From Klebsiella phage KP13-16, in sequence record OP617741.1: a DNA stretch of 64,000 nt; one strand, 5' to 3'. Below are positions 18,262-36,195 of this stretch, one piece after another. Position 1 is the first letter of the stretch. Each line of letters begins with the position of its first letter. The position numbers were made by a program, and so were the translations under genes. A model generated the notes under the pieces. It made no database searches, was not told the DNA's origin, and was given only the letters and a program-made list of their open reading frames with translations.

Positions 18262-18272
18262 GGAGAACTAAA

Positions 18273-19009: not shown

Positions 19010-19035
19010 TTTTTATTTAAATTCAGGAGTTTATT

Positions 19036-19404
19036 ATGAATGGTTACTATGTACCGATTAAAGTTCAGATTGTACAAGATAAAGATCTGATTAAACAAGA
19101 GTTTGATTCCATTAACCCAGATGGGCGTTATAGTTTAAATGAGTTATTCCCTGGTGTTACTTCTGGGAAATTTGTCAAAATTGATAGTTTCTTTATCAAT
19201 GAAGATGATGAACAAATCCTTACTGTTTCTTTCTTCAGGGATGGTGGTCAAGGTACACCTTACAAAGAAGTTTTATGCAAACAAGAAGCAAAACTTTGCA
19301 TGGACCACAGTAAACGTAAATTTTATATTGACACTCGTTTTGGTGTGTATTATCTTTCTAAAGGGGATTTAGACATCGTTCATAAGTTGAAGAGTAGAAA
19401 ATAA
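19036..19404 (+). CDS. hypothetical protein
   Basis: RBS AGGAG. Confidence 0.5.
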   Translation: MNGYYVPIKVQIVQDKDLIKQEFDSINPDGRYSLNELFPGVTSGKFVKIDSFFINEDDEQILTVSFFRDGGQGTPYKEVLCKQEAKLCMDHSKRKFYIDTRFGVYYLSKGDLDIVHKLKSRK

Positions 19405-19625
19405 TGAATCAAAATACTTTTGTTTGTCCGGGAATGATTGTAAAACTACCATATAAGCTAGGTGATTCCGTAGTGTATGCTCACTGTGTAGTTGTTCAAG
19501 TTTTTAGGTATACAGTTGATATGGAAAATCTTAAAACACGAAATATTTTCCCTGTTGACATTTCTTCACTTAGGCAACACGGTGAATTAATTGGCTATAG
19601 TTATAAGGAAAAATGGAATGATTAA
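19404..19625 (+). CDS. hypothetical protein
   Basis: ATGA-coupled to upstream ORF. Confidence 0.45.
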   Translation: MNQNTFVCPGMIVKLPYKLGDSVVYAHCVVVQVFRYTVDMENLKTRNIFPVDISSLRQHGELIGYSYKEKWND

Positions 19626-19712
19626 ACCTTTAGAGTATCATGGGACGAATAAACCTTACACAGCAATGGATTTAATCCTTGCTAAACAAAAACTTATGAA
19701 TGAGGTAAAATA

Positions 19713-19868
19713 ATGAAATTACTTATTACTGATATCCGTGCATTTGAAAATTACGGTGCTGCTTTATCCTGCTTAGGTGCATATTCTGTTGGTGATATTT
19801 TAGAATACAATGAACATATGCCAATCTTTGAAATCTTAATTGAAAGAGGCTGGGTGGCTAAAGTATGA
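19713..19868 (+). CDS. small hypothetical protein (51 aa)
   Basis: Unlisted ORF MKLLITDIRAFENYG..., RBS GAGGT. Confidence 0.35.
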   Translation: MKLLITDIRAFENYGAALSCLGAYSVGDILEYNEHMPIFEILIERGWVAKV

Positions 19869-20062
19869 TAACTTTATCTGGTTGGGTTGTAGTTGCTACT
19901 TTGAATGGTAAGCAAGAAATAGACCAAGCACAAATTTATAAAACTCCTGCAGAATGTTATGTAGCTTTGCATTGGCCTACTACTCAAGGAGATAAAGCTT
20001 CATATGATTGTTTTTATATTGAAGGTAAGCCCGTCAAATTAGAAGTTAAGGAGATAAAATGA
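19865..20062 (+). CDS. hypothetical protein
   Basis: ATGA-coupled. Confidence 0.45.
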   Translation: MITLSGWVVVATLNGKQEIDQAQIYKTPAECYVALHWPTTQGDKASYDCFYIEGKPVKLEVKEIK

Positions 20063-20253
20063 GTATTGTTAGCAAAGAGACACTTGATTATATTAAGAAA
20101 AAACGTTCAGATGCTTTAGCTAGAACCTATTATGAAAACAAATATCATAATGCAATGCGTGGTTTAGATTCAGCAATTGCTATCTTAGAGCAAATTGAGC
20201 ATACCACACAAGGTTTGTCTATTGAGACTAAAATTACATTGAGTAAGGATTAG
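20059..20253 (+). CDS. hypothetical protein
   Basis: ATGA-coupled. Confidence 0.45.
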   Translation: MSIVSKETLDYIKKKRSDALARTYYENKYHNAMRGLDSAIAILEQIEHTTQGLSIETKITLSKD

Positions 20254-20261
20254 GAGGAAAT

Positions 20262-20510
20262 TTGACTAAAGAAAATATTCAAGAGAACACTATTGACTTC
20301 TCTGCACACATCTATGATAGTCCACATTTTGATGCCTGGCGTTATTCAGTTAAAACTTCTCCAGATTTTCCTGATGTTGTCGTCCTTTCATATGAAGAAT
20401 TTAATGAAAACTTAAAAGACTATGTAAGTAATGGTGAGATCTCTTTTGATCTTGAAACATGGAATAAAATTCAACATGCTGTAGATGTTTTATTCAAAAA
20501 CAATAAGTGA
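20262..20510 (+). CDS. hypothetical protein (TTG start)
   Basis: AGGAGG before TTG. Confidence 0.4.
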   Translation: MTKENIQENTIDFSAHIYDSPHFDAWRYSVKTSPDFPDVVVLSYEEFNENLKDYVSNGEISFDLETWNKIQHAVDVLFKNNK

Positions 20511-20518
20511 GGAACTAA

Positions 20519-21871
20519 ATGAGTAAAGAATTTGTTATTGAGACTGTATTAAATACATTTAAATATGAAAAAGCTCTTTTCAAAGAGTGTAATATGATGA
20601 TTGCAGGCGGTGTTTTTACTTCCCTTTTTACCAAGAAAGAAGTAAATGATGTTGATTGCTATTTTCGATCTAAAGCTGATCTTGTTCGCTTTCTGAATTA
20701 TATTTCTGAGTACGGCGATAATCGTTTTTGTATCTCTATTACTGATAAATCTGTGACGTTGGTTGGTGGAAGTGTACCAATTCAATTGATCTATTTTAAG
20801 TATTTTGAAGATCTTCAAGATGTTTTCAACACTTTTGACTTCACAATCTCAATGTGTGGATATGATTTCAAAACTGAAAAACTAGAATATCATCCTGATT
20901 TCTTTAGTGATTTATCACAACGCCGTCTGAGTTTTAATAAAAATACAGCATATCCTTTGGTTAGTGCTTTACGTGTAAATAAATTTAAAGATCGTGGGTA
21001 TCAGATTTCTCGTAGTGAAATGATTAAGCTTCTTTTAACTGTTTCACAGCTTGAAATTAAAACACCCCGCCAGTTTATTGAGCAGATTGGTGGTTTCTAT
21101 GGCAACAGTGCTTTGGCTGCGCTTTCCAAACTGGATGATAAAGATTTTGATCTTGAAAAAGGTCTGAAGGTCTTGCATGAATCTTCTGAAGGAAGTAACC
21201 CAGAAATCAATAAAGTTATTTCTAAACCTAACGAATCTAAGCTTGCTGTTCATCAACTTGCTCGCTTGATTGATTCAGATAATCCATTAGAGGGTGGTTG
21301 GTATCGAGAAGATAATGTGGCCTATTATAAATCTAAATATGGTCGTCATAGTATTCCTTTGGATATTGCTTTGCTGTTTGCACCTCAAAATGAAGTCTTT
21401 GAAAATGTAAACCCAGAAGAGCCTACTAGTGGAATGTTTTATAAATGGGTGCATAAAACAGAGAATCCAAATATCTTTAAATCTATTCACCGAGATTCTT
21501 TCTTATACGAACTGGGTAAAGATGCCGTAGATGAGCAATCTGGCTTATTCTTCTGCAAGGATACAGATATTAAAGACCACTACTTTGCAAATCGTGAAGG
21601 CGTTGTTATGTTGATGTGTCTTGCAGAAATTAAAGATCGAACGGCTCACAGATCTAATGAACTTCGTTTCACTAAGGTTAAAGTTCTGAGTGTTGTTAAT
21701 GAGCCTTATGTCAAATCTCCTGACCTGTCTACTGTAGATATTAGTAGTAAATTTAATATCAAAGTCTCAGAGAATCATTGTCGAAATGAAGAACTGGATT
21801 TGGAAGATTTGCCTGAAGAAAATGAAGGGAGTACTGTTGAACCCCTCAGTGTAACCGGACCAGTGTTTTGA
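20519..21871 (+). CDS. Pol-beta-superfamily nucleotidyltransferase-like protein
   Basis: IAGGVFTSLFTKKEVNDVDCYF fits hG[GS]-x(9-13)-DhD; downstream FDFTISM provides third acidic residue. Confidence 0.45.
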   Translation: MSKEFVIETVLNTFKYEKALFKECNMMIAGGVFTSLFTKKEVNDVDCYFRSKADLVRFLNYISEYGDNRFCISITDKSVTLVGGSVPIQLIYFKYFEDLQDVFNTFDFTISMCGYDFKTEKLEYHPDFFSDLSQRRLSFNKNTAYPLVSALRVNKFKDRGYQISRSEMIKLLLTVSQLEIKTPRQFIEQIGGFYGNSALAALSKLDDKDFDLEKGLKVLHESSEGSNPEINKVISKPNESKLAVHQLARLIDSDNPLEGGWYREDNVAYYKSKYGRHSIPLDIALLFAPQNEVFENVNPEEPTSGMFYKWVHKTENPNIFKSIHRDSFLYELGKDAVDEQSGLFFCKDTDIKDHYFANREGVVMLMCLAEIKDRTAHRSNELRFTKVKVLSVVNEPYVKSPDLSTVDISSKFNIKVSENHCRNEELDLEDLPEENEGSTVEPLSVTGPVF

Positions 21872-21887
21872 TAATCAAAAATTAGCG

Positions 21888-21970
21888 GTCTAGAAAGCAA
21901 TATGAGAGGTTTTTAGAGAGAAGATATCCGTATGGGTTACTTTAAACTAAAACCTCTCAAAATCGTTTCT
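21888..21970 (+). terminator. nested inverted repeat (CTAGAAA/TTTCTAG outer, GAGAGGTTTT/AAAACCTCTC inner) downstream of NTase-like gene
   Basis: Seen directly; possible terminator or structured RNA. Confidence 0.35.
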
Positions 21971-22008
21971 AGGTGTCTTAAATTTGATCTGTAGTTTTAA
22001 AGGAAAAT

Positions 22009-22293
22009 ATGAGACGATTAACAGATAGAGAACAGATAGAATTCCTTATGGCTTACTTACCTTCTGTAGGACATACAAAAGGTACACCATTTGAAGAGGC
22101 AACTCTTACTCTGGATAGTGGAAGACCTTTTGACATCTACTCTATGAAAGAAATTTTAGAGCTTTTGCACCATATGAACATAGTTGCTGCAACAGGTGCT
22201 GTATCACCCACAGATAAATTTGTTTATATTTGGTTAAAGCATCATGGAATTATTGATGCGTTTTCTTACCTAAATGAACATATAAATAGTTAG
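22009..22293 (+). CDS. hypothetical protein
   Basis: 94 aa ORF. Confidence 0.45.
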   Translation: MRRLTDREQIEFLMAYLPSVGHTKGTPFEEATLTLDSGRPFDIYSMKEILELLHHMNIVAATGAVSPTDKFVYIWLKHHGIIDAFSYLNEHINS

Positions 22294-22480
22294 TAACCAC
22301 TATACCTATATGTTGTGTGTTTTGTCTTTTACAGACACTATAAAAGTCATGAACTTTGATCGGGCTGGAAGCCTTGGTATCTCTGGCCTGGAAGCAAAAC
22401 AGTATTAGGATGGAGTATAGTACCCTCCCAGAAATTATAATAATTATAATTAATCATATTAATATTAAGTAAGGAGTTAG

Positions 22481-23761
22481 ATGAGTAAGATAGAATATGA
22501 AACATCTTATGAAAGGATCCTAAGATTAGATAATAAAAGAATTGGTCAGATGTACCCTATAATCTTCAGAGGAAGAAAAGATGGGTGTCATGATATTGTA
22601 GAAAATATCTTAGGGTTAATTACAGATCATACTACTAAGCAGAAAGAGATTGAGTGTTACAGAACTTTACTTTATAATCTAGTTTATTCTTATTGTTACA
22701 AAGGTTATGAAGGTATAGTTTTTTCTTCTAATAAAAATAATTTTAAGAGTTATTATGTACTGAATGGAACTAAACATAAAACTAAAATTTATTATGATGG
22801 ATCCAGAAGATTCTTGGACAAGATGAAAAACCTAGGATACCTAACTTCAGCCCCAGGTGGGAGTTTAGGTGTACATGGATACAAACCAGGTTATATTCTT
22901 TTCACTGATAAGTTCAAAAGAGAAGTTGGAGAATATGATCTTGTAGAGATCGTTCCAGAAAAGAATTTAGTCCGTATGAGAAACAGAAAAACAGGAGAGT
23001 ATATGATCTTTAAGGAAACAGATGAAGTCATTGAAATGATAAAGTTGACTCGTGAGTATAACCAGATGATGGAACAATGGAATGTTGAACTCAATGGTGT
23101 CCCTATCAACAGTGACATTTATCGTCTCTTTCTGGACTCTATGGATTACTATGCAAGATGGCATGGTGAATTCCAGATTATTCCTTCTGAACAACGGCAG
23201 GATATAACGTTTGATTTAAATCCTACTAAAGAGATTGACTTTCAGGCTAGTCACATCACCATTATGTATGCTATGAAAGGTCTTCAGATCACTGATTCAG
23301 ATCCTTATGATCCTCAAAAGGTTATGGCAAATATTGACTTGGATGAGGTGGACTTCAATGGTTGTAGTCTCACTAGAAAAGATCTTAAAACCTTTGTCAT
23401 GATGATGATCAATTGTAAATCTCATACCTCTGCTGTCAAAGCACTTGCAAACGAGGAATCTTTGAGTTATAAGTATGGGAAAGGTCATACTTTCTATAGC
23501 AGTATCCTTCTTGCTCTCGAAATGATCCACCATGAGATCTCTGATTTATTCTATGTTCCTGGCTTCTCTATGACGTTGATGAAACAAGAATCCGAGGTTA
23601 TGGCAGAGATTTTAAGAAAATGTGTAGAAAATGAGTTGCCTGTTCTACCAATTCATGATAGTGTTGTCTGCATGGAAGAACATGTGAGAGAGGTCAATCA
23701 AATCATGCTTGACAGTTTCTTTGAAAAGTGGCATGTTCAATGTACAACTAAGATTAAGTGA
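22481..23761 (+). CDS. hypothetical protein (very AT-rich gene)
   Basis: 426 aa ORF, RBS AAGGAG. Confidence 0.5.
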   Translation: MSKIEYETSYERILRLDNKRIGQMYPIIFRGRKDGCHDIVENILGLITDHTTKQKEIECYRTLLYNLVYSYCYKGYEGIVFSSNKNNFKSYYVLNGTKHKTKIYYDGSRRFLDKMKNLGYLTSAPGGSLGVHGYKPGYILFTDKFKREVGEYDLVEIVPEKNLVRMRNRKTGEYMIFKETDEVIEMIKLTREYNQMMEQWNVELNGVPINSDIYRLFLDSMDYYARWHGEFQIIPSEQRQDITFDLNPTKEIDFQASHITIMYAMKGLQITDSDPYDPQKVMANIDLDEVDFNGCSLTRKDLKTFVMMMINCKSHTSAVKALANEESLSYKYGKGHTFYSSILLALEMIHHEISDLFYVPGFSMTLMKQESEVMAEILRKCVENELPVLPIHDSVVCMEEHVREVNQIMLDSFFEKWHVQCTTKIK

Positions 23762-23771
23762 GGTATTTACT

Positions 23772-24281
23772 ATGGTGAGTATTAAATTAGATACATATGC
23801 AGTTCGTCAGTTGTTCCCAGAAGGAACTCAAGCTTATGTAGATTTGCAACAATCAGTTATTTCAAATATTGCTAAAGACCTTATCATTAAGGATACTGGC
23901 AATAAAGTTCGTAAACTGATTCAAGACGAAATCAATGCTTATGGACTAGTTGTTCCTGATGTATCAGACATTGTCAAGAAAGAAGTCGATACTTGGTTCG
24001 AATCCCGTGGTTATGGCTCTGTTTATTATAATGTGTCAAATGTCTTTAAAGGACGTATGCAAGAAGCAGCAGATCGTGAAGCACGTGCAACTATTGACGC
24101 TGTTATCAGTGATGTAATTAAAACCGCTACTGATAGAGCAATGAAAGATATTGAATACAAAATCGAAGCTGCTACTCAACGTATTGAGAAAATCATTGTT
24201 GATCGTGTTAACCAGAGCTTTGCTTCAATCATCGATCAGGCTGTAGCAGAGAAAATCAAGAAAGCTATCCCAGGATTATAA
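23772..24281 (+). CDS. hypothetical protein
   Basis: Internal start MVSIKLD after GAGG. Confidence 0.45.
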   Translation: MVSIKLDTYAVRQLFPEGTQAYVDLQQSVISNIAKDLIIKDTGNKVRKLIQDEINAYGLVVPDVSDIVKKEVDTWFESRGYGSVYYNVSNVFKGRMQEAADREARATIDAVISDVIKTATDRAMKDIEYKIEAATQRIEKIIVDRVNQSFASIIDQAVAEKIKKAIPGL

Positions 24282-24415
24282 ACTAGAGTGCAAAATAACA
24301 CGTCTAGAATCAAATCTGAGGTGTTTAATATCTAAAAATGAGTTACCCTACAGCTTAAAATAATAACGTCTTATAATCGCTTATAGAAGCTTTAAAATAA
24401 TATAGGAGTTAATTA

Positions 24416-24598
24416 ATGAGTAAGACTAAAGTTTGTGTAAGTTCATTTGATAACCCAAAAATTGCTGCTTGTGGTGGCCCCTATAATGACTTTTACATTA
24501 CACCCTATTGTAGGGAAGTAATTACATGCAAAAAATGTCGTAAAACAAAAGAGTTTAAGAACTTACCAAATGCTCATGCAAAGGGGTTTAAGAAATGA
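24416..24598 (+). CDS. small Cys-rich protein
   Basis: RBS AGGAG. Confidence 0.4.
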   Translation: MSKTKVCVSSFDNPKIAACGGPYNDFYITPYCREVITCKKCRKTKEFKNLPNAHAKGFKK

Positions 24599-25005
24599 AT
24601 AAAACTATTGAAACTTGGATTAAAAATGTAAAAACATACCCTCCTGCTGAGATCTTCTTTGAAAAGTATGGAAAAGAGGCCAAATCAGAGAAAAGAATCC
24701 AGGATCTTTGTGAAGAAGTTTATCGGTTTTGCTTCCCTGAAGGAGAGAAGAATCCATTATCAGATCTTTCTCAATCATATCGAGAACTTGAAGTAGCTTA
24801 TATTCTTGGTTTTGAGGGAATGAAGAAAGAATATCTTCAAAAGGTTAAAGATAAATTTCTTGAAGATGCCAAGTATGCTATTAAAGCATTAGACAACCTC
24901 TTCAAAAAAGATCAATTACTTCAAAAATATTATGTAGACTGGAAACTTAAATATTCTGAATTGGAAACAGAAGTATATAAAATGACTAAGGGGTATTTGC
25001 AATGA
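24595..25005 (+). CDS. hypothetical protein
   Basis: ATGA-coupled. Confidence 0.5.
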   Translation: MNKTIETWIKNVKTYPPAEIFFEKYGKEAKSEKRIQDLCEEVYRFCFPEGEKNPLSDLSQSYRELEVAYILGFEGMKKEYLQKVKDKFLEDAKYAIKALDNLFKKDQLLQKYYVDWKLKYSELETEVYKMTKGYLQ

Positions 25006-25244
25006 AAGTTATTATTACAGCAGAGGCACGTGTTCATCTTTCTAAAATTGTAGAAATGAGTGAAGAAGATTATGAAAAATATAAAGAAATTGTTGTTGAT
25101 TCTACGGGTTTAACTTATAGAGAAATAGATCAAGAGATTGCAAAACTCGCAGATAAATATGATTTTGGTTATGGTGACGATATAGAGGACATGGAAGACC
25201 CGGAAGAGGTTACTTTTCAGGTTTTTAAAGAGGGTTCAAATTGA
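25002..25244 (+). CDS. hypothetical acidic protein
   Basis: ATGA-coupled. Confidence 0.45.
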   Translation: MKVIITAEARVHLSKIVEMSEEDYEKYKEIVVDSTGLTYREIDQEIAKLADKYDFGYGDDIEDMEDPEEVTFQVFKEGSN

Positions 25245-28200
25245 AAAAATTTTCACCTACAAAAGAGCAAAAAGAATCTTTAAATGTTTTTGAAATTGAA
25301 CAGATTCTAAAGATTTCAGCAAAGGCTGGTACAGGTAAGGCCCAACCACTCACAGCAGTAGTAAAAACCCCAAACGGGGATGTAGAATTAGGAAAAATTA
25401 ATATTGGAGATTCTGTATTTAGAAAAGATGGCAGTATTGGTAAAGTAACAGGAGTTTTTCCTCAAGATGGACTTCAACCAACATATAAAGTAACGTTTCG
25501 AGATGGATCTAGTACAGAATGTAATGGTGAGCACATTTGGAGTGTATATGGAGGGAAATATAAGGATAAAATTGTTAACAGAACTTTAAATGAAATGCTT
25601 GAAAAAGGCTTATATAATTCTCTGGGAGATATGAAGTATAAGATTCCTATGGCAGAACCAGTCCAATATCAAACAAAAGCCTTTGATATTGATCCATATG
25701 TTTTAGGAGTTTTAATTGGTGATGGCTATCTTTGTGGAACAACACCAGCGTTTAGTGTAGGAGAAAAAGATAAAGAAATCTTAGAGTTGGTTCAAAAAAT
25801 TTATCCAAATTGGATTTATGGGAAACATATTACAGGTAAAAATTGTATCCAGTATAGTATCTCAGAGCCAACGAAAGGTAGAGTAAATAATATTAAAAAT
25901 AAAATAGAAAATCTTGGTTTAAATGTAAAATCAAGCTTTAAATTTATACCTAATGAGTATTTATATGGAGATGTCCGCCAAAGAATCCAATTACTTAGAG
26001 GGTTAATGGATACAGATGGAAGTTGCGTTAAAAATAGAACAAGTTTTACATCAACATCAAAAAACTTAATATTAGACTTAAAGACTCTTGTTCAAAGTCT
26101 TGGTGGAACAGCCATTGAAACTTATGTAGATGTGAGGAGTGAAAATTCATGTTATACATTGAATATTAAAACTCCAATGTGTCCTTTTAAGGTTAAAAGT
26201 AAAGCTTCACTTTGGACTAAAAGCAGTAAAAATCCTCCATCAAGATATATCAAGAGTGTTGAGTATGTAGGTGAAAAAGAACAAGTCTGTATCTCCGTTG
26301 ACAGCGATGACCAATTATATTTAACAGATGAGTTTATTGTTACACATAATACATCAACACTTAAATTTATTGCTGAATCTCATCCTGAGTTGACTTTCTT
26401 ATATGTAGCTTTTAATAAGAGTATGGCAAACGATGCAGCCAAGAAGTTCCCAGATAACGTGCATGTTATGACCATTCATTCACTGGCATATCGTAACATT
26501 GGTAAGCACTATGCTCATAAATTGACTCGCCCAACTGGTCGTTATATTAATATGGCTGGGACAGGATCTGAGATTGCACAACATTACGGTATTTTTGATA
26601 TGAAAGACCATAATGGGGCGGTCTTGACTAAAAATTATCTTGGATTAATTGTAAAAGATACAGTTAATACTTTTGAAAGGTCTGATAAAGATAAAATTAC
26701 AGAATTTCATATTCCTAAGTTCCATATGGATGATGTCAAACGTCGATTTGCTCTTAAAGAATCTAAAGTTAAAAAGGAAATTTTGAGTGTTGCTAAAAAA
26801 CTTTGGGAAGATCGTTGTGACAAAGAGGAACGAATCCTTTGCACACATGATACTTATCTAAAACTGTATCAGATGAGTAAACCTAAGTTTGAAACTTATG
26901 ACTGTGTTCTGATTGACGAAGCACAGGATACTAGTGATGTAATGATTTCACTTTTCTCTAATATTAAACCTAAAATCGTCTATGTTGGTGATAAACACCA
27001 ATGTGTTTCTGGAGAAACTGTACTTGAGACACCTTGTGGTAATAAGCTTATGCAAGATCTTTCCATAGGAGATGAAGTAAAATCTTACAGAAACGGTCAA
27101 CAAGTCTATCGTAGAGTGTTGAATAAAACTTTATCAAATCGTACAGAAGGATTAAGTGTTGCTACTCGGAATGGTAATATCCTAGATATGACACTAAATC
27201 ATAAAATTTGGGCTACCAGTTTTAATTTACAAGAAAAACAGATGATTGTATATCTTATGTGGAGAAAAGACCTTGGATTCCGTGTTGGTATTACCAATAA
27301 GATAAAAGATAGTTATGGTAATATTAGTTTTGGTCAGAGAACTTTACATGAACGTGCACAAAAATTTTGGATTCTAGATGTTGTAGCTAATCGTGAGGAA
27401 GCTCTTGAAAAAGAACTTACATATAGCTTACAGTATGGTATCCCAATGTGCGTATATGAAGCAAAATCACGAGGTCTGAATCAAGATCGTATTAATAACA
27501 TTTTTAAAATTTTTGGCAAAAATGGTTTCATTTTATTATCAGAAAAAGATTACTCTTTTGAATACCCGCATTGGCACAATATCAATTCACGCTCAGTTAA
27601 CCGTAAAATGTTAACAGTACATTTGACAGCACATTGTGTCAAAGGTAGCCAAGTTTCTTTTGAGTGGACAGAGGAAGACATGCCAATTACTTCTACTTTA
27701 GAAGATGCTGGAATTAAAGTTACATATGCTAAAAAGAGTGGAAGATTTCGTGTACGTAAATGGTTTAGTAGCTACATTGAAGCATTAGAGTTTTCTAATG
27801 ATATTTGTGATTTAGTACCTTATGCATCAATTACAGAGCGAATGGCCTACACATCTGAGCACAAGTTAAATTTATTACCTGCGGCTTGTCTGTTTGAAGG
27901 GATGTCTGTACTAATAGATGATGGATGTGGAAATACTGTAATAGATGAGATTATCTCTATTACCCCACATAAAGGTGAGTATTTTGATATTGAAGTAGAA
28001 GATACTGCTAATTTCTTTGGTAATGGAATTCTTAGCCATAACTGCATTTACGGTTGGCGTGGATCAGTTAACGCTATGGAGAAAATCAGTGCACCAGAAG
28101 TTAAATTAACTCAATCATTCCGATTTGGTAAAGATATTGCAGATGTAGCAAAATTGATTATTGATGAAGAGGTAACAGGACTGGAATCTATTAAGTCAAT

Positions 28201-28837
28201 TGTTGGTGAGATTGATCCTAATAAGCCTTATACTGTCCTTTATCGTAAGAATGTGACCTTAATTTTTGAAGCACTTGAGATGATTGCAAGAGGTGAGAAA
28301 ATCTTCCTGAATATTGATGTAAGGGACTTTGTCTCTATGCTCGAATCTGCTCTATATCTTCACAATAAACAAATTAAGAAGGTTAAACATGAGCTTATTG
28401 TACCATACGCAACATGGGGAGATTTAGTCAATGAAGCACAATCTGATCCAAGTATGGGTAAACTCGTTAAAATTGTCCAGGAAGGTCGTGCTCAAGAAGT
28501 TATCAACAATTTAAACTTTAGTGAAAAGAGTGAAGCGACTGCTGATGTTATTTTGACAACTAGCCATAAAGCGAAGGGTCTTGAATGGGATCAGGTTGTC
28601 CTTGCAGATGATTTTAAGTCTTGTTATGACAGTAAAGGTAAACTTCAGAAAGTTGACCAAGAAGAAGATAACCTACTTTATGTAGCTTGTACTCGTGCAC
28701 GTAAAGTCCTGAAACCAAACAGTGTTGTTGAAGAAAAATTTCTGTTAAAAGGAATCCCTATCCCTTATAAAATTGCACATTTTGGTGTAGGCGATAGTGA
28801 AAGTATTGACCAATTTTTTGTTACTGAGGAGCAATAA
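25241..28837 (+). CDS. UvrD/Rep-like SF1 DNA helicase precursor containing two inteins
   Basis: Extein motifs: I AGTGK|T(STL), Ia TIHSLA, II VLIDEAQDT, III VGDKHQ|CIYGWRGS, IV LTQSFRF, V TSHKAKGLEWD, VI YVACTRARKVL; the two | positions are interrupted by intein-like inserts. Confidence 0.85.
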   Translation: MKKFSPTKEQKESLNVFEIEQILKISAKAGTGKAQPLTAVVKTPNGDVELGKINIGDSVFRKDGSIGKVTGVFPQDGLQPTYKVTFRDGSSTECNGEHIWSVYGGKYKDKIVNRTLNEMLEKGLYNSLGDMKYKIPMAEPVQYQTKAFDIDPYVLGVLIGDGYLCGTTPAFSVGEKDKEILELVQKIYPNWIYGKHITGKNCIQYSISEPTKGRVNNIKNKIENLGLNVKSSFKFIPNEYLYGDVRQRIQLLRGLMDTDGSCVKNRTSFTSTSKNLILDLKTLVQSLGGTAIETYVDVRSENSCYTLNIKTPMCPFKVKSKASLWTKSSKNPPSRYIKSVEYVGEKEQVCISVDSDDQLYLTDEFIVTHNTSTLKFIAESHPELTFLYVAFNKSMANDAAKKFPDNVHVMTIHSLAYRNIGKHYAHKLTRPTGRYINMAGTGSEIAQHYGIFDMKDHNGAVLTKNYLGLIVKDTVNTFERSDKDKITEFHIPKFHMDDVKRRFALKESKVKKEILSVAKKLWEDRCDKEERILCTHDTYLKLYQMSKPKFETYDCVLIDEAQDTSDVMISLFSNIKPKIVYVGDKHQCVSGETVLETPCGNKLMQDLSIGDEVKSYRNGQQVYRRVLNKTLSNRTEGLSVATRNGNILDMTLNHKIWATSFNLQEKQMIVYLMWRKDLGFRVGITNKIKDSYGNISFGQRTLHERAQKFWILDVVANREEALEKELTYSLQYGIPMCVYEAKSRGLNQDRINNIFKIFGKNGFILLSEKDYSFEYPHWHNINSRSVNRKMLTVHLTAHCVKGSQVSFEWTEEDMPITSTLEDAGIKVTYAKKSGRFRVRKWFSSYIEALEFSNDICDLVPYASITERMAYTSEHKLNLLPAACLFEGMSVLIDDGCGNTVIDEIISITPHKGEYFDIEVEDTANFFGNGILSHNCIYGWRGSVNAMEKISAPEVKLTQSFRFGKDIADVAKLIIDEEVTGLESIKSIVGEIDPNKPYTVLYRKNVTLIFEALEMIARGEKIFLNIDVRDFVSMLESALYLHNKQIKKVKHELIVPYATWGDLVNEAQSDPSMGKLVKIVQEGRAQEVINNLNFSEKSEATADVILTTSHKAKGLEWDQVVLADDFKSCYDSKGKLQKVDQEEDNLLYVACTRARKVLKPNSVVEEKFLLKGIPIPYKIAHFGVGDSESIDQFFVTEEQ
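25340..26350 (+). mobile_element. intein 1 (337 aa) with LAGLIDADG homing endonuclease domain, inserted in helicase P-loop
   Basis: Hint block A-like start AQPLTAVVKTPNG, LGVLIGDGYL and LLRGLMDTDGSC LAGLIDADG motifs, terminal IVTHN followed by Thr+1; begins with Ala not Cys/Ser. Confidence 0.7.
27002..28042 (+). mobile_element. intein 2 (347 aa) inserted in helicase motif III
   Basis: Starts CVSGETVLE (Cys1), block B TLNH, ends FFGNGILSHN followed by Cys+1; removal restores VGDKHQCIYGWRGS. Confidence 0.7.
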
Positions 28838-28839
28838 AA

Positions 28840-29085
28840 ATGCGATTAATTTCCCCATACCCAAGGCCACAAAAGCCAGGTAGAGCCTACTATGAATCTG
28901 TGTATAAAGATTGTGTTATGGTTTATGCAGAAGATTTGGCAATTGGTGATACCCTCCGCTATGGAGGGATTGTTGAAAGTGTAGTCGTTTATAGACAGAC
29001 AGGAAAGGTTCAATTTTCTATAGCAGGAAAATCTAATAATATTGAAATTTCTGTTGGGTCAATGATAAATCTTAAGGTGAATTAA
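28840..29085 (+). CDS. hypothetical protein
   Basis: 81 aa. Confidence 0.45.
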   Translation: MRLISPYPRPQKPGRAYYESVYKDCVMVYAEDLAIGDTLRYGGIVESVVVYRQTGKVQFSIAGKSNNIEISVGSMINLKVN

Positions 29086-29565
29086 ATGAGTAATGAAATA
29101 TTAATTGAAGTGAATAATGAGTTAGTAGCAACTATCGATAAGTGTCGTGAAATTGTCAACTGTCCGAAGGGTATAGATTTGCAGGACCATCTGCGACAGT
29201 TGGCTGCGGAGAATATGGCGCTATCGAAGGATGCTCAGCGTTATCGCTTTATCAGAGAAAGGGACATGTTCGGTTCAGACAATGAATCTGGATTGTTGAG
29301 TTGGGAGGAACTCACCGAGCTTGAGTGCAAAGAATTCGATGATGCACTTGATGCAAGAATTAACCATCCAAATACTGGTTTTATAGAGTTTGACGCCAAG
29401 CTGCAAGCTCGCGAAACCCTCGCCACCGATCGGATCCTAGCCGGGATTAAGGCTGATGGGGTAGAGGAGTTTGCAAAGTACATCTCACTCTATAATAGCG
29501 GTGCTAAACATCATACGATTAATTTTGCAAAACATCTGCGTGAGGGTCTGACAAATGAATTTTAA
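29086..29565 (+). CDS. hypothetical protein (locally GC-rich gene)
   Basis: 159 aa ORF, higher GC than neighbours. Confidence 0.5.
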   Translation: MSNEILIEVNNELVATIDKCREIVNCPKGIDLQDHLRQLAAENMALSKDAQRYRFIRERDMFGSDNESGLLSWEELTELECKEFDDALDARINHPNTGFIEFDAKLQARETLATDRILAGIKADGVEEFAKYISLYNSGAKHHTINFAKHLREGLTNEF

Positions 29566-29902
29566 TTTTAAGTCAGGTACTGGTAAGATTACTATCAATG
29601 GACAGGATTATATTGGTGGTAATATGTATATTAATGGTGATAAAGTTGTGATAGATGGAAAAGTTATCATGGATAGTCTTGTTGGAGACCTAAATATCAC
29701 TATTCATGGAGACGTCGATAAGCTTGAGACGGGTTCAGGAGATGCTACTATTTACGGAAATGTTGAGAGTGCTTCGACCATGAGCGGAGATCTTTTTTGT
29801 GAAACAGTTAAAGGAGATGCAAGCACTATGTCAGGGGATATCAATGCTAAGACAATTCATGGTAAAGCTAAATCAATGTCTGGAGATATTAACTATAAAT
29901 GA
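29555..29902 (+). CDS. repeat protein with reiterated MSGD(I/L) motifs
   Basis: Three TMSGD/SMSGD repeats, Gly/Asp-rich. Confidence 0.45.
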   Translation: MNFNFKSGTGKITINGQDYIGGNMYINGDKVVIDGKVIMDSLVGDLNITIHGDVDKLETGSGDATIYGNVESASTMSGDLFCETVKGDASTMSGDINAKTIHGKAKSMSGDINYK

Positions 29903-30576
29903 ATAAAGTCATCTATTGTATGTATGACGGATCTGGAATAGCAGGATTGCCATGGGCAGAAGCAGGATTTAACGTCTATTGCTTTAATGCCGATGAAGGT
30001 GATCATGGTGAATACTTCATTAAAATGCAACACCCTAATCTTCATTATATTAATATCTGGATTGATAAAGATTTTAGACTAAAAGTAAAAGATATGGGAA
30101 TACCTGATCCTAATTTTATTTTTGCTTTCCCAGACTGTACTAATGTTGCTGTAAGCGGTGCTCAACATGAAAAGACATCTGAACAAAAGAATGATGTAGT
30201 CCGTTCAGCTAAGTATGTAGAGTGGCTAGGTAATTATTATAATTGTCCTTGGATTGTCGAGAATCCTGTTTCTCAATTAGCAACTAAGTGGAGAAAACCA
30301 AATTCATATTTTGACCCGTATGAGTACGGCGGCTATCTCACAGGTGAAGAAGAACAGTTTCATCCAAAAATGCCAAAGTTTGATGCTTATACTAAGAAAA
30401 CATCTCTTTGGTATGGAAATGGCTTTAAAGTTCCACCTAAGAAGCCAGTGCAACACATTGGCTATTGTTGGTCTTGGAGACATCTAGGCGGGAAGGGCAA
30501 GAAAACTAAAATTTTACGTTCTTTAACTCCACGTGGATGGGCGAAGGCTGTTTTTGAAAGTAACTCAGGATTGTGA
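29899..30576 (+). CDS. C5-methyltransferase-fold protein (atypical)
   Basis: Motif I-like YDGSGIAG, motif IV-like FPDCTNVAVSG (PDC not PCQ), motif VI WIVENPV. Confidence 0.35.
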   Translation: MNKVIYCMYDGSGIAGLPWAEAGFNVYCFNADEGDHGEYFIKMQHPNLHYINIWIDKDFRLKVKDMGIPDPNFIFAFPDCTNVAVSGAQHEKTSEQKNDVVRSAKYVEWLGNYYNCPWIVENPVSQLATKWRKPNSYFDPYEYGGYLTGEEEQFHPKMPKFDAYTKKTSLWYGNGFKVPPKKPVQHIGYCWSWRHLGGKGKKTKILRSLTPRGWAKAVFESNSGL

Positions 30577-30736
30577 TATTTTATTGATCAGAGCTTTTAT
30601 ATTTTGACTTAAAAATCTGCACAAGAGAAGGCTTCACCTAAAATCTATGAGAAATTACGGTCTAGCTTTCTTTATATTAGGTGTATATTTAGTTTAAATA
30701 AAGTTTCATGTTAAAAGCATGTTCGATCTAGCATTT

Positions 30737-30765
30737 TTGACATTTCGGATTTTAAAATCCATAAT
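30737..30765 (+). promoter_or_regulatory. strong sigma70-type promoter P1 (TTGACA-17-CATAAT)
   Basis: Seen directly. Confidence 0.5.
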
Positions 30766-30922
30766 TTTTTAGTGAAAAGTCAATTCCATGTTTTTAAAAG
30801 TGACATTTACAATGCAATGCAGTATAGCAAATACAGATTTTTATTCAAAATGTTTAATATTCAAACCGTTTTAAATTTTATGAAAATTTTTTGTGGCAAA
30901 TCGGGAAAAATTTGTAGCATTT

Positions 30923-30951
30923 TGGACATCCCTATTTTCAAAATCCATAAT
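30923..30951 (+). promoter_or_regulatory. strong sigma70-type promoter P2 (TGGACA-17-CATAAT), shares 15-bp AAAATCCATAATTTT with P1
   Basis: Seen directly. Confidence 0.45.
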
Positions 30952-31035
30952 TTTCTGGTTCACATCATACCCATGTTTTTATCCAGGCAGTTTCTTGGGA
31001 ATATCTCTAAGTGAGAATGGTTCTCATTTGAGAAG

Positions 31036-31057
31036 TTGAATGATAATCATTCTCATT
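31036..31057. promoter_or_regulatory. Fur-box-like operator TTGAATGATAATCATTCTCATT
   Basis: Contains AATGATAATCATT, the central 13-mer of the Fur consensus GATAATGATAATCATTATC; 17-mer identical to 38855-38871. Confidence 0.45.
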
Positions 31058-31080
31058 TATAAAACGAAATAAGACTCATT

Positions 31081-31343
31081 CGCATTTGCGGAATGACGGG
31101 CAGGTTCGGTGTTTGTCTCGCGATTCCCGTTACCCCTCGCCATGTAGAAATAATAACATAACCAACACTAGGATCAAGCGTCTTTACATTTCTTTACAAA
31201 ACTATTCAAGGCGAGCTACCGGCGATTCACCTTCCGACCTGGCCCCCGCGCCTGGTACGTTAGCCCCGCCTTTTCGCCGTGGGGTGGCGTGTCCTCTTCT
31301 TTATGGATACATTATGCCCCATTCCCTGGGGCGTGTCAACACA
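31081..31343 (+). ncRNA. candidate structured non-coding RNA (GC-rich, no credible ORF)
   Basis: About 60 percent GC segment downstream of two tandem promoters; only a compositionally implausible ORF. Confidence 0.25.
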
Positions 31344-31553
31344 TTAAACACCATATTTGATAAAATCCCTGGCGGCTTGTGTAGGCTGATATTCTACGCC
31401 GTAAGCGTCATCCACCTGCACAAGAAAACCTTTCTTAATCAAGCCCGTTATTGCCCGGCGAGCTGCTGTATAACTGGTGAAATGTGAATCATTGCTAAAA
31501 GTGAAACCGTGTTTAATAGCTATTTCAAGAGTGAGTTTTTCTGTTTTGGTCAT
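31344..31553 (-). CDS. small putative winged-helix DNA-binding protein
   Basis: 69 aa, RBS GAGGA; flanked by 11-bp direct repeats TGGCGGCTTGT. Confidence 0.45.
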   Translation of the reverse strand: MTKTEKLTLEIAIKHGFTFSNDSHFTSYTAARRAITGLIKKGFLVQVDDAYGVEYQPTQAARDFIKYGV

Positions 31554-31655
31554 TGTCCGATCCTCGTTATGCCTCCACCGTGGCGGCTTGTTAATTACTA
31601 TATACTAATGAAGGGAAAACGCAAGCGAAAAATTTAGAAAAATATTTGCATCCAA

Positions 31656-31685
31656 GTATTGACGGGAAGATCAAGAGGGACTATT
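31656..31685 (+). promoter_or_regulatory. sigma70 promoter TTGACG-17-TATTAT
   Basis: Seen directly, upstream of 31751 ORF. Confidence 0.45.
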
Positions 31686-31750
31686 ATTCACTACACAAGG
31701 CGAGGCGATAGGCGCACCGTGAGAGCAACGATAACCAGGAAGAAAAGAAA

Positions 31751-31972
31751 ATGGCAACATTACACGTAGTAGTTTATAAGCACGCGGTAACGGGCGATGA
31801 TATGATCCAGGTGCTTGTTAATGGCTTTTGTGAAATGGAACGAGAAGGCGATTTCAACGGTTATTGCATTGTGTGTGCTTTCCTTGATTCCCTGGTTGAA
31901 ATGTGTGTTATCACTCATGAGCAGCGCGAAGCGAAGATCAACCGCCTGAAAAAACTTTTAGATATCGAATAA
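31751..31972 (+). CDS. hypothetical protein
   Basis: 73 aa, E. coli-like codon usage. Confidence 0.5.
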   Translation: MATLHVVVYKHAVTGDDMIQVLVNGFCEMEREGDFNGYCIVCAFLDSLVEMCVITHEQREAKINRLKKLLDIE

Positions 31973-31979
31973 AAACCGC

Positions 31980-32038
31980 TTGACAGATTCGCACAGTAAC
32001 GTATAATTCACTTCATAGGCAGCGGGAATGGTTCCCGC
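31980..32038 (+). promoter_or_regulatory. promoter TTGACA-16-TATAAT followed by 5' UTR hairpin GCGGGAATGGTTCCCGC
   Basis: Seen directly. Confidence 0.55.
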
Positions 32039-32061
32039 GCCGATATAAAGAGATTTGAAAA

Positions 32062-32352
32062 ATGAAAATTTCAGAGAACAAAGATTTAATTTTCACCGTT
32101 AAAAATTATATCCGCCACCCGTATGAATTTGGCGGATATCCGAAAATTTTAATTATGCGTGATGGTAGTTGCCTTTGTTCAAAGTGTACGCATGAAAATT
32201 TTCCCCGCCTATTGGAAGAATTAAGAGATGAGAGTGATCTAGCATGGATGCCCGCGGACGTGGATGTTTTCTGGGAAGGTGCGGATTTCCCGTGTGGTAA
32301 TTGCCAGACTCCGATCCATAGTGCATATGGAGATCCCGAAGAAGAAGAATAA
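32062..32352 (+). CDS. hypothetical Zn-ribbon protein
   Basis: CLCSKC ... CGNC. Confidence 0.55.
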   Translation: MKISENKDLIFTVKNYIRHPYEFGGYPKILIMRDGSCLCSKCTHENFPRLLEELRDESDLAWMPADVDVFWEGADFPCGNCQTPIHSAYGDPEEEE

Positions 32353-32354
32353 AT

Positions 32355-32411
32355 ATTGACAAGCATCTAAAAGATAGTAAACTGTTAATCAAAGGGCGGG
32401 AATGGTTCCCG
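32355..32411 (+). promoter_or_regulatory. promoter TTGACA-16-TAAACT followed by identical hairpin GCGGGAATGGTTCCCGC
   Basis: Seen directly. Confidence 0.5.
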
Positions 32412-32431
32412 CCAAAACAAAGAGAGAAAAT

Positions 32432-32593
32432 TATGATTGCTATGAATACCCGCGAAGCCGCTCGCAACGTAGCCCGTAAAGTTAATGCCGTTGCACCTGC
32501 TAAATTGAAAGCACCAGTGAAAGGCGAAAACGGCTGGATCTTCCCTGGCTTGTCTCATGCCGACAACAAAGGCACTTTGAGCCTGAAAAAATA
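32432..32593 (+). CDS. small hypothetical protein (53 aa)
   Basis: Unlisted ORF MIAMNTREAARNV... Confidence 0.4.
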
Positions 32594-32595
32594 AG

Positions 32596-32633
32596 TTGAC
32601 TTTTCGTTATAGCGCCTTATAATGGGCGCTATA
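32596..32633 (+). promoter_or_regulatory. promoter TTGACT-16-TATAAT with -10 embedded in perfect 9-bp inverted repeat TATAGCGCC/GGCGCTATA
   Basis: Seen directly. Confidence 0.55.
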
Positions 32634-32658
32634 GAGAAGAGAAACCAGGAGTAGAAAA

Positions 32659-32802
32659 ATGAAAATGTATAACGTGGTAGTAGTGAACAATAAAACAGGC
32701 GTCAAAGTGATCATGAATGCTTCACCGTTAACCCATTTAGAAGGTTGCACTATGTTAGCTAAACTAACCAAATACACCTGGCGAACAGAAAAATTAGAAG
32801 AA
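32659..32802 (+). CDS. small hypothetical protein (47 aa)
   Basis: RBS AGGAG. Confidence 0.4.
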
Positions 32803-32807
32803 ATTTG

Positions 32808-32846
32808 TTGACTTTCTGTGATGCCTCTTTATAATAAGGGGCATTG
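32808..32846 (+). promoter_or_regulatory. promoter TTGACT-17-TATAAT with -10 inside inverted repeat GATGCCTCTT/AAGGGGCATT
   Basis: Seen directly. Confidence 0.5.
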
Positions 32847-32880
32847 AAGAGAGAAGCCAAACAATCTAACGAGGTGTAAA

Positions 32881-33102
32881 ATGGTTACATTCGCAATTAT
32901 TTCTCTGGTAGCTGGTAACGTGTTTATTAATGACACTTTCCCGGCGGATGATAGCAAACCTGGCGAGATCAGCACAGTTTATGCAGATTGTAAAGCCGCC
33001 GAACGTATGTTATCACCTTGCTTGCTGATGAGTGAACGCGACGACGGGAAGATCGTATTCACGAACGTGGAAACATGGTATCAATTGGTAGTAGAAAAAT
33101 GA
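32881..33102 (+). CDS. hypothetical protein
   Basis: RBS GAGGTG. Confidence 0.5.
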   Translation: MVTFAIISLVAGNVFINDTFPADDSKPGEISTVYADCKAAERMLSPCLLMSERDDGKIVFTNVETWYQLVVEK

Positions 33103-33248
33103 ATCCTAAGCATAAAATGATGATGGAAGCAAGCCGTTTCATCAATAAAACAGAAAAAAGAAAATGTTTTGTTTTATGTCTTACAACGCTTGCAATTGGT
33201 TTAGTGTGTGTTATTATTACTTACACGAACATTGAAGCAGGAAATTAA
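33099..33248 (+). CDS. small membrane protein (49 aa)
   Basis: ATGA-coupled, hydrophobic core. Confidence 0.4.
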   Translation: MNPKHKMMMEASRFINKTEKRKCFVLCLTTLAIGLVCVIITYTNIEAGN

Positions 33249-33250
33249 AA

Positions 33251-33595
33251 ATGGCTAAAAATATTAATAAAGCAGAAAAAAGTTTTGTTAAATTGTCGGA
33301 TGTTGAATGCGTACATATTAATGCACGCCGATGGTTTCAACGTTCATATGGTAATACATACTTTTCTTTAAAAGTAGACGTAGAAGTTAACGGACAGATT
33401 ATTAATATTGTTAATGTGCCTTTTGAGTATGGTTATGGGGATCATTATGATTCTGTAGCTTTAAAAGAATTTAAAGAAGCTGTTATATTAGATGAAAAAT
33501 TGGAGGACTACTGCTATTTATCACGTGCCCTTAAAGAATCTGGTATTTTAGTTTATAATCATTGCTCTGATGTAGACCGTAAAAAAGATTTATAA
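33251..33595 (+). CDS. hypothetical protein
   Basis: 114 aa. Confidence 0.5.
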   Translation: MAKNINKAEKSFVKLSDVECVHINARRWFQRSYGNTYFSLKVDVEVNGQIINIVNVPFEYGYGDHYDSVALKEFKEAVILDEKLEDYCYLSRALKESGILVYNHCSDVDRKKDL

Positions 33596-33600
33596 TTTAT

Positions 33601-33640
33601 TTGACTTTTCGTTATGCCCTGTTAGAATATAGGGCATAGA
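33601..33640 (+). promoter_or_regulatory. promoter TTGACT-16-TAGAAT with -10 inside inverted repeat TTATGCCCTGT/ATAGGGCATAG
   Basis: Seen directly. Confidence 0.5.
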
Positions 33641-33673
33641 GAAAAGAAATAACACTAACCAGGAATATCTAAA

Positions 33674-33874
33674 ATGACTAAATCTACTTTTGACTTTTCA
33701 AAAATGGTTGTTGAATCTACCGAATCCTTGAAAGGATTCAGAAAAGAAAGCGGCTATTATAAATCATTGTCACTTGTTGGTTTACATGATAATCAAATTA
33801 AATCATTTGCCGAGATCCGCCATTATGCAACAAAAGCAACTACGTTTGTTTTTGGATTCATTCCCCTATCTTAG
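33674..33874 (+). CDS. hypothetical protein; downstream -1 frame stays open to 34073 (possible frameshift extension)
   Basis: Frame -1 has no start codon yet is open from 33802 to 34073. Confidence 0.4.
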   Translation: MTKSTFDFSKMVVESTESLKGFRKESGYYKSLSLVGLHDNQIKSFAEIRHYATKATTFVFGFIPLS

Positions 33875-34079
33875 GTTTATATGGTCAAGTAGGCGCAAAG
33901 GCTGGCGGTTATGGTTATAATAGATCTGAAGCAGCTATTTCTCAGGCAGCAAGAAAATTTAATATTGATGTCCCTAGCTGGTGCGATCAGCAAACATTAT
34001 TAGAAGAACTTGCAAAATATTTAGGTTTAGAGGTATATTCTGTAATTGAAACAAATGCTTAAAACTTAAAGGTAGCATT

Positions 34080-34370
34080 ATGTTAAAACAGGCGAAAACT
34101 TATGTATTGAGTAAGTTTATTAAACGGGTATTAAATGACCCAGTTTATAAAACTTACTACTGTTACAAAATACTTGATAACAAAGGTGATTATTTAATTT
34201 CTTCTGTGATGTGCCATGAGCAAGCGATGATCTTTGAAATAGGTTTAAGACAAAAGAAAGTTTTAAACGAAATAATTTCATTTGAAATTATTGCTCAAGG
34301 CGGCGAAGATGAAGTAACAGAAGAAAAATATCATGAAGAAAATTATATTAAACAAACATTGGAAGATTAA
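34080..34370 (+). CDS. hypothetical protein
   Basis: 96 aa. Confidence 0.5.
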   Translation: MLKQAKTYVLSKFIKRVLNDPVYKTYYCYKILDNKGDYLISSVMCHEQAMIFEIGLRQKKVLNEIISFEIIAQGGEDEVTEEKYHEENYIKQTLED

Positions 34371-34372
34371 AG

Positions 34373-34504
34373 ATGCAAAGCAAAAATTTTGAAAAGATTA
34401 AGAGCAGTAAGCAACGTTTAGAATGTAATGAGACAGATGAACGCCGGGAGCGTAGTAATAAACGCAATAAGCCGCAGCGTAAGCGTTTTAATTGGGAAGA
34501 ATAG
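34373..34504 (+). CDS. small basic protein (43 aa)
   Basis: Unlisted ORF. Confidence 0.3.
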   Translation: MQSKNFEKIKSSKQRLECNETDERRERSNKRNKPQRKRFNWEE

Positions 34505-34637
34505 GGAAACCTATTAATAAAGATTAAAGCCTCTTAGAATGGATTTTAGGGGCTTTAAATTTGATTTAAATTTTTCTTGCTTTTTCCATTTTGTTGATCT
34601 ATTCTCTTAATCAGGCAAACAAAGAGAGATTTACAAA

Positions 34638-34898
34638 ATGGAAACATTAAACATTTTAAATGATAGATTCTGTTTTGATTTAATAGGTCTGTTAATTATT
34701 TCACCTGTAACTATTATTTACGCTATCCTAACTTTTAAAGGTCTAACTATGAAACAAAATGTAATGAAGATCCACACTAACACCGGATCTACAATTGTTA
34801 CCCCGTTTCATTTTGCAATGAAAAGCCGTTGCAAACGTCTTAAAAGTGAGTTAAAATCTAACACAAATACAGGTTTTAAACGTTGGGGTAAAATCTAA
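34638..34898 (+). CDS. hypothetical membrane protein
   Basis: RBS AGAGAG. Confidence 0.45.
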   Translation: METLNILNDRFCFDLIGLLIISPVTIIYAILTFKGLTMKQNVMKIHTNTGSTIVTPFHFAMKSRCKRLKSELKSNTNTGFKRWGKI

Positions 34899-36194: not shown

Positions 36195-36195
36195 A

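Follow-up and report, generated by a model that had tools for sequence, protein, structure and literature searches.

The UvrD-like helicase gene of Klebsiella phage KP13-16 very probably carries, within its Walker A motif, a full-length class 3 intein whose HINT domain is split by a LAGLIDADG endonuclease with two motifs. This element, termed intein 1, comprises 337 aa from Ala1 to Asn337 (aa 34-370 of the precursor; 25340..26350, + strand) and was located in a 64,000-nt stretch of record OP617741.1, hereafter the window. The assignment draws on the boundaries and the empty allele that defines them, on the catalytic residues and their family-wide conservation, and on the fold. An intein at this position had been proposed by a first-pass annotation, and every item listed there for it was found where it had been placed. 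The result is a cleanly delimited class 3 intein from a phage whose host is of clinical relevance.

Host gene and boundaries of intein 1

The window consists of phage DNA, for which the closest record is that of Klebsiella phage vB_KpM_FBKp34 (Stephanstirmvirinae), with 97.8% identity across the alignable parts (24-30 kb). The host gene of intein 1 (25241..28837, +), delineated by the ORF list, by Pfam and by colinearity with FBKp34 gp073, encodes a UvrD/Rep-like SF1 helicase precursor of 1198 aa with two inteins. The Pfam domains UvrD-helicase, UvrD_C and AAA_19 are all recognised above their cut-offs, and the predicted spliced product comprises 514 aa. An identical 1198-aa helicase is also encoded on a 137-kb contig from run SRR21837335. 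The second insert, intein 2, is a class 1 intein of 347 aa (aa 588-934; 27002..28042, +), which starts with Cys1, terminates in SHN followed by Cys+1 and interrupts the sequence GDKHQ/CIYGWRG, where a slash marks the insertion site here and below. It is absent from the FBKp34 allele, and a homologue at the same site is annotated in E. coli phage PaulScherrer.

The N-extein of intein 1 (aa 1-33; 25241..25339, +) ends in the Walker A sequence AGTGK, as seen in the alignment with AGTGKTSTLKF of the FBKp34 allele, and the precursor reads KISAKAGTGK/AQPLTAVV...DEFIVTHN/TSTLKF. The FBKp34 orthologue gp073 (MW394390, 514 aa) is devoid of both inserts and reads ...KISAKAGTGKTSTLKF... in protein and DNA alignments; the stretch GCAGGTACAGGTAAGACCTCAACACTT is likewise taken from this intein-free allele. 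Removal of aa 34-370 and aa 588-934 from the window gene leaves 1545 nt, which is also the exact length of the gene in FBKp34, and a base-by-base comparison of the exteins with the latter revealed 36 mismatches in 1545 nt (97.7% identity), most of them synonymous. Intein 1 is inserted between the Lys and the Thr of Walker A (GTGK/TSTLKF), a position that Kelley et al. described as 'classic' for P-loop inteins (PMC5050341). The lysine of the P-loop, which is invariant, is Lys-1. In a family alignment of 81 full-length inteins, comprising those of the window and of phage Bethlehem plus 79 relatives from a search of 5.8 billion proteins, 60 members have Lys at position -1. Both this alignment and that with FBKp34 identify Thr+1 (ACA; 26351..26353, +), the first C-extein residue, as the Walker A Thr (GK-T).

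The intein-free allele also bears on a concern raised in the first-pass annotation, namely that the boundary might lie one residue off and conceal a canonical Ser1 or Cys1. A misplaced boundary of this kind, by which intein 1 would belong to class 1 and begin with Cys, Ser or Thr, has nothing in its favour beyond the general risk of by-eye calls and is next to impossible. Shifting the boundary by one residue in either direction yields GTG-NTSTL or GTGKA-STLKF, neither of which is the empty allele, and no other excision frame of intein 1 regenerates GTGKTSTLKF. Since the FBKp34 allele fixes the insert as AQPL...THN, position 1 of intein 1 is Ala and there is no hidden Cys1 or Ser1, exactly as the N-terminal junction had initially been read. 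Moreover, the junction K/A-Q-P is followed by no Cys, Ser or Thr within four residues downstream.

Within 13 nt of the site, FBKp34 and the window differ at two positions only, both synonymous (GCA vs GCT at -13, ACC vs ACA at +2), and about 290 nt around the site are otherwise identical. The two differences may stem from co-conversion or from drift of the target site. The base composition of intein 1 relative to the exteins gave no clear sign of a foreign origin, intein 1 being only slightly AT-richer (GC 0.321 and GC3 0.187, as compared to 0.349 and 0.249 in the exteins). The natural pair of intein-plus and intein-minus phages thus delimited, with about 98% nucleotide identity between them, constitutes the main practical value of this locus, as it is convenient for studying class 3 chemistry, LAGLIDADG homing in co-infection and the order of splicing of two inteins.

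Splicing residues and class assignment

As defined by Tori et al., class 3 inteins combine a residue other than Ser, Thr or Cys at position 1 with the WCT triplet (PMC2807308), which denotes Trp at B:12, Cys at F:4 and Thr at G:5 (PMC2807308; restated in PMC5050341). Intein 1 exhibits this set of features completely, with Ala1, Trp67 (B:12), Cys317 (F:4) and Thr335 (G:5), and in addition features Thr+1 as the nucleophilic +1 residue that is associated with class 3 and is usually Thr or Ser. The class 3 reading of the first-pass annotation is thereby sustained at the level of the definition given in PMC2807308, and the WCT triplet that it had noticed is present; its T, however, is Thr335 at G:5 and not Thr+1, to which it had been attributed. 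Because both residues are Thr, the class 3 conclusion is unchanged.

The block A region AQPLTAVVKTPNG (25340..25378, +) begins with AQPL, the family consensus. Ala1 (GCC; A:1; 25340-25342, +) corresponds to Pro1 of the Bethlehem intein, and this position is occupied by a non-nucleophilic residue in 68 of the 81 family members, of which 53 feature Ala and 15 feature Glu, Gly, Pro or Gln, while the remaining 13 possess Ser or Cys. Hence, intein 1 is devoid of an N-terminal nucleophile. On the other hand, approximately 16% of the family pair Ser1 or Cys1 with WCT, which indicates that the triplet and the absence of an N-terminal nucleophile need not go together. Block B FRDGSSTECNGEHIWSV (25496..25546, +) aligns with SHGW of the Bethlehem intein and with the HxW motif of 6rix and 6bs8. 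It harbours His65 (B:10; 25532-25534, +), equivalent to Bethlehem His65 and found in 81/81 sequences, as well as Trp67 (TGG; B:12; 25538-25540, +), equivalent to Bethlehem Trp67 and found in 80/81; His65-Ile66-Trp67 is aligned to His65-Gly66-Trp67 of the Bethlehem intein.

Blocks F and G QVCISVDSDDQLYLTDEFIVTHN (26282..26350, +), which include Tyr327, align with VKCIGID...ILTHN of the Bethlehem intein. Cys317 (TGT; F:4; 26288-26290, +), the counterpart of Bethlehem Cys320, is conserved in 81/81 sequences and is also invariant in a second alignment of 74 sequences. The C-terminal Thr335-His336-Asn337 (G:5-7; 26342-26350, +) aligns with Thr339-His340-Asn341 of the Bethlehem intein, residue by residue: Thr335 (G:5; 26342-26344, +) and Asn337 (G:7; 26348-26350, +) each occur in 80/81 members, and His336 (G:6; within 26342-26350, +) in 81/81. 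Finally, Thr+1 (G:8; 26351-26353, +) matches Thr+1 of the Bethlehem precursor, and this position is Thr in 68/81 and Ser in 13/81 members but never Cys, the +1 residue used by KlbA inteins.

With Ala1, intein 1 departs from class 1, in which Cys or Ser occupies position 1 and initiates the N-S or N-O acyl shift. Class 2 (KlbA-type) splicing, in which the +1 residue attacks directly, would suit Ala1 equally well, since an Ala at this position is also a hallmark of KlbA inteins (PMC2807308), and the first attacking atom cannot be told from sequence alone. Nevertheless, a class 2 mechanism is very unlikely for intein 1: inteins of this class lack the WCT triplet (PMC2807308), which intein 1 possesses; its F:4 residue is the invariant Cys and not Asp, which standard inteins usually carry there and which is represented by Asp147 in the Mja KlbA intein (PMC2807308); and at +1 it has Thr, which is poorly suited to direct nucleophilic attack. 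The residues of intein 1 support its interpretation as a class 3 intein, for which the WCT motif constitutes strong evidence though not proof. Grafting WCT onto the class 1 intein gp41-1 was insufficient for splicing (PMC7664689), so that the motif alone is no proof of activity.

Endonuclease domain and predicted fold

A homing-endonuclease and DNA-recognition region (approximately 25586..26239, +) separates the two halves of the splicing domain, as outlined by the AlphaFold2 (AF2) secondary-structure map, Foldseek and Pfam. It comprises LAGLIDADG motif 1, LGVLIGDGYL with the acidic Asp128 (25703..25732, +), and motif 2, LLRGLMDTDGSC with Asp224 and Asp226 (25991..26026, +). In the 74-sequence alignment, G-D-G of motif 1 and Asp226 of motif 2 are at least 90% conserved, and Asp224 and Gly227 are invariant; the acidic residues are intact in both motifs (LGVLIGD128G, GLMD224TD226G). 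Pfam LAGLIDADG_3 (PF14528) matches residues 216-260 with an E-value of 1.1e-7 and 32.5 bits, compared to a cut-off of 22.5.

An AF2 model of intein 1, built on the 74-sequence alignment, reached a pLDDT of 94.9 and a pTM of 0.93. The top Foldseek matches of the whole intein were PI-SceI (E 1.9e-16), the TliVMA intein and PI-PfuI. The splicing domain on its own matched MchDnaB-1 with a target-normalised TM of 0.82-0.84, MchDnaB-1 and MsmDnaB-1 both being found at E values of about 1e-5, and the central domain matched I-DmoI (E about 1e-5, target-normalised TM 0.55-0.59) as well as the endonuclease domains of PI-SceI and PI-PfuI. The model and its matches place intein 1 in the HINT fold and reveal an endonuclease core fold around the two motifs. 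The two-motif LAGLIDADG endonuclease recognised in the first-pass annotation was thus recovered independently by family conservation, Pfam and Foldseek. The endonuclease is putative, and its activity may have decayed despite the intact motifs.

A more far-reaching decay is conceivable as well, by which intein 1 would be a non-splicing remnant that permanently inactivates the helicase. Precedents exist, as Arthrobacter Arth_1007 is reportedly a class 3-like pseudogene intein, and the helicase could be dispensable for the phage. Several observations on intein 1 speak against such a fate and render it very unlikely: the catalytic residues and both LAGLIDADG motifs are all intact, the ORF runs uninterrupted over 1198 codons, the exteins retain their full length and match the intein-free allele at 97.7% identity, most of the differences being synonymous, and the AF2 model folds with a pLDDT of 94.9.

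Relationship to known inteins

The prototype MP-Be intein, described as a 'DnaB' intein, was sought near the annotated DnaB-like gene of phage Bethlehem (AY500153). A local tblastn search of 30-45 kb of AY500153 gave no match for it, and no gene for a helicase or large ATPase is annotated at 45-52 kb. Literature and translation agree that it resides in the terminase large subunit (TerL; GenBank gp11), where the sequence VSQDQ/PLALNT...ILTHN/TKNTF matches the published junction (PMC2807308). Like intein 1, the Bethlehem intein comprises about 340 aa, contains a LAGLIDADG endonuclease, is devoid of the N-terminal nucleophile and interrupts a phage ATPase; both also share the His65/Trp67 numbering, Cys at F:4 and a terminal THN followed by Thr+1. 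In contrast, it starts with Pro1 instead of Ala1, and its TerL site VSQDQ/TKNTF is no P-loop, unlike the GK/T site of the UvrD-like helicase. The TerL inteins of cluster A1 mycobacteriophages (StrongArm, Big3) are about 27% identical to intein 1 according to tblastn, and the Bethlehem intein is very distant overall.

Regarding the insertion site, the DnaBi1 inteins of M. smegmatis and M. chimaera (6BS8, 6RIX/6RIY) resemble intein 1 in that they occupy a helicase P-loop and feature Ala1 together with WCT. M. smegmatis DnaB combines the class 3 DnaBi1 in its P-loop with the class 1 DnaBi2 (PMC6195587), and the window helicase, with a class 3 intein in the P-loop plus a second intein of class 1, formally parallels this arrangement. 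However, the DnaBi1 inteins are mini-inteins without an endonuclease, their host is a bacterial DnaB (SF4) and not a phage SF1 helicase, and their redox partner Cys48 has no demonstrated equivalent in intein 1.

The best sequence match in the PDB was gp41-1 (6QAZ; WCT-grafted variant 6RIZ), which covers the N-terminal splicing half of intein 1 with an E-value of 1.5e-9 for the WCT variant and was followed by the class 3 DnaB-1 inteins of M. chimaera and M. smegmatis. Whereas gp41-1 shares the THN C-terminus with intein 1, it belongs to class 1 and is naturally split, starts with Cys1, has Phe at B:12 as well as Asp at F:4, and is devoid of an endonuclease; its WCT variant required the substitutions F65W and D107C (PMC7664689).

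A correspondence in both site and residues was observed for Vibrio phages 424E50-1, 501E54-1 and K412, whose orthologous UvrD-like helicases harbour unannotated inteins at the same site (GSGK/AQPI...VTHN/TTT). These inteins likewise feature Ala1, WCT and LAGLIDADG motifs, are 47% identical to intein 1 over the whole intein and, as the term is commonly used, count as the same intein allele. They differ in belonging to another phage lineage and in that the helicase contains no second intein.

Proposed splicing mechanism and its implications

Homology with the Bethlehem, Deinococcus Snf2 and mycobacterial DnaBi1 inteins leads us to infer for intein 1 the mechanism outlined in the following, and by the same analogy it is presumed to be competent for splicing and to possess endonuclease activity. 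Since Ala1 is incapable of an N-S or N-O acyl shift, Cys317 of block F would attack instead, its target being the peptide bond between Lys-1 and Ala1, to give a thioester-linked branched intermediate. His65, Trp67 and Thr335 would serve to position and activate Cys317. In a second transesterification, the N-extein would be transferred to the hydroxyl group of Thr+1, yielding the standard branched intermediate of block G, from which cyclisation of Asn337 would release the intein. The final O-N shift would then rebuild the P-loop GTGK-TSTLKF. A branch pathway via a Cys equivalent to Cys317 is that proposed for the Bethlehem (MP-Be) intein (PMC2807308), and crystal structures of MchDnaB-1 provide structural support for it in the form of a Cys-His-Thr/Trp arrangement (PMC7664689). 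Intein 1 leaves the known class 3 mechanism unchanged.

As splicing would restore the P-loop, the helicase would be competent for ATP only afterwards. By analogy with the RadA and DnaB inteins of the P-loop, the unspliced helicase would be unable to bind ATP normally (PMC6195587). In addition, the LAGLIDADG domain is expected to cleave alleles devoid of the intein, for example that of FBKp34, when both phages infect the same cell, upon which repair would copy the intein in.

Intein 1 provides a single catalytic thiol, Cys317, in the P-loop of a helicase that also bears a fast class 1 intein. A role of intein 1 as a conditional switch, beyond that of a parasite, in which the redox or metal state of the infected cell would gate splicing and thereby activation of the helicase, is modelled on M. 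smegmatis DnaBi1, for which such gating of splicing was shown. This role is unlikely. If it did apply, it would constitute the first post-translational control of this kind in a lytic phage, and the FBKp34 allele would render the switch directly testable and furnish a natural system for measuring homing.

Occurrence in other phages

Class 3 inteins had been regarded in the first-pass annotation as rare and mostly known from mycobacteriophages and Deinococcus, a view that is out of date. A tblastn search with intein 1 retrieved related inteins in 861 phage records, 804 of which span 80% or more of its length. Sorted by organism name, 300 of the records retrieved are of Mycobacterium, 185 of Salmonella, 72 of Vibrio, 49 of Stx2a-converting, 40 of Klebsiella and 29 of Escherichia phages, with others besides, and Klebsiella jumbo phages are among them. 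Eight related phage inteins were inspected, with junctions taken from translations, and seven of them contain WCT. The seven are those in TerL of Bethlehem (Pro1), Klebsiella phage N1M2 (Ala1) and Klebsiella phage K64-1 (Leu1), in the helicase of Vibrio phage 424E50-1 (Ala1), in a DnaB-like helicase of an Stx2a phage (Ala1), in Bacteroides phage BS-TP3 (Ala1) and in a helicase of E. coli phage EC001 (Cys1). The eighth, in a helicase of Salmonella phage Ent1, has Cys1 without WCT and belongs to class 1.

Metagenomic relatives occupy the GK/T or GK/S site of PhoH, SNF2, DnaB, UvrD/RecD-like and other AAA ATPases, and RGR/TF in PhoH emerged as a second recurrent insertion site. Furthermore, intein 1 is matched by PHROG families for terminase, a DnaC-like loader and primase, from which it follows that such inteins are embedded in member proteins of these families. 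The nearest relatives of intein 1 are 47.5% identical among phages and 61% identical for the best match in the databases.

Class 3 inteins are common in phages, and intein 1 is not unusual as a kind; only this allele is new here, along with the presence beside it of a class 1 intein in one SF1 helicase. P-loop inteins of class 3 are widely distributed, though for the most part without annotation, among phages of Enterobacteriaceae, Vibrio and others. This matters for annotation, since several of these inteins bear labels such as 'terminase', 'DarB-like antirestriction' or 'HNH endonuclease'.

A second intein and the empty helicase allele

The UvrD-like helicase gene (25241..28837, + strand) harbours, in addition to intein 1, a second intein at 27002..28042 on the + strand. 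Intein 2 belongs to class 1, featuring Cys1, an Asp at position F:4 (in YFDIEV), a terminal SHN and Cys+1. Sequence searches of Pfam, PHROG, NCBIfam and PDB gave no match to its central domain (about 200 aa), and a homologous, annotated intein occupies the identical site in bas60_0082 of E. coli phage PaulScherrer.

The orthologous gene of Klebsiella phage vB_KpM_FBKp34 lacks both inteins. At the intein 2 site, Cys+1 (TGC, 28043..28045), the residue which intein 2 requires, is opposed in FBKp34 by Ala (GCA, codon 251), so that all three bases differ, while the preceding codon carries a synonymous difference. Given these differences, either the empty allele of FBKp34 did not arise by simple and exact loss of intein 2, or the +1 codon was co-converted at invasion.

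The intein 1 site (intein at 25340..26350, + strand) is likewise flanked by differences from FBKp34, at 25327 (GCT/GCA) and 26353 (ACA/ACC), that is, at positions -13 and +2 from the insertion site. Both are synonymous and lie close to the site, and no other difference from FBKp34 occurs within about 85 nt on its upstream side or 290 nt on its downstream side. They may constitute the trace of a co-conversion tract or of a polymorphism of the homing site.

WCT relatives with a position-1 nucleophile

Within the family of intein 1, about 16% of the members have Cys1 or Ser1 together with a complete WCT triplet, among them the intein in the helicase of E. coli phage vB_EcoM_EC001 and the relative P0013. 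Such inteins may be transitional forms linking class 1 to class 3, a point made earlier about three inteins (PMC2807308).

Annotation of the host genes

Among the phage records matched by intein 1 (e.g. NC_048709, NC_070936, OR613482 and MG592609), the annotation of many genes with relatives of this intein reflects the intein and not the host protein, giving rise to labels such as 'DarB-like antirestriction', 'HNH endonuclease', 'homing endonuclease', 'RNA ligase' and 'exonuclease', while other such genes are helicases labelled 'terminase'. P-loop inteins thus appear to cause systematic mis-annotation of phage genes.

Composition and gene modules of the window

The window comprises three gene modules, transcribed divergently and convergently. 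In GC skew, 1..64000 shows a positive stretch at 18-40 kb between two negative ones, at 1-18 kb and 40-64 kb, and the strand of the large ORFs agrees with this pattern. A block of higher GC content (0.41-0.42) lies at 13-17 kb.
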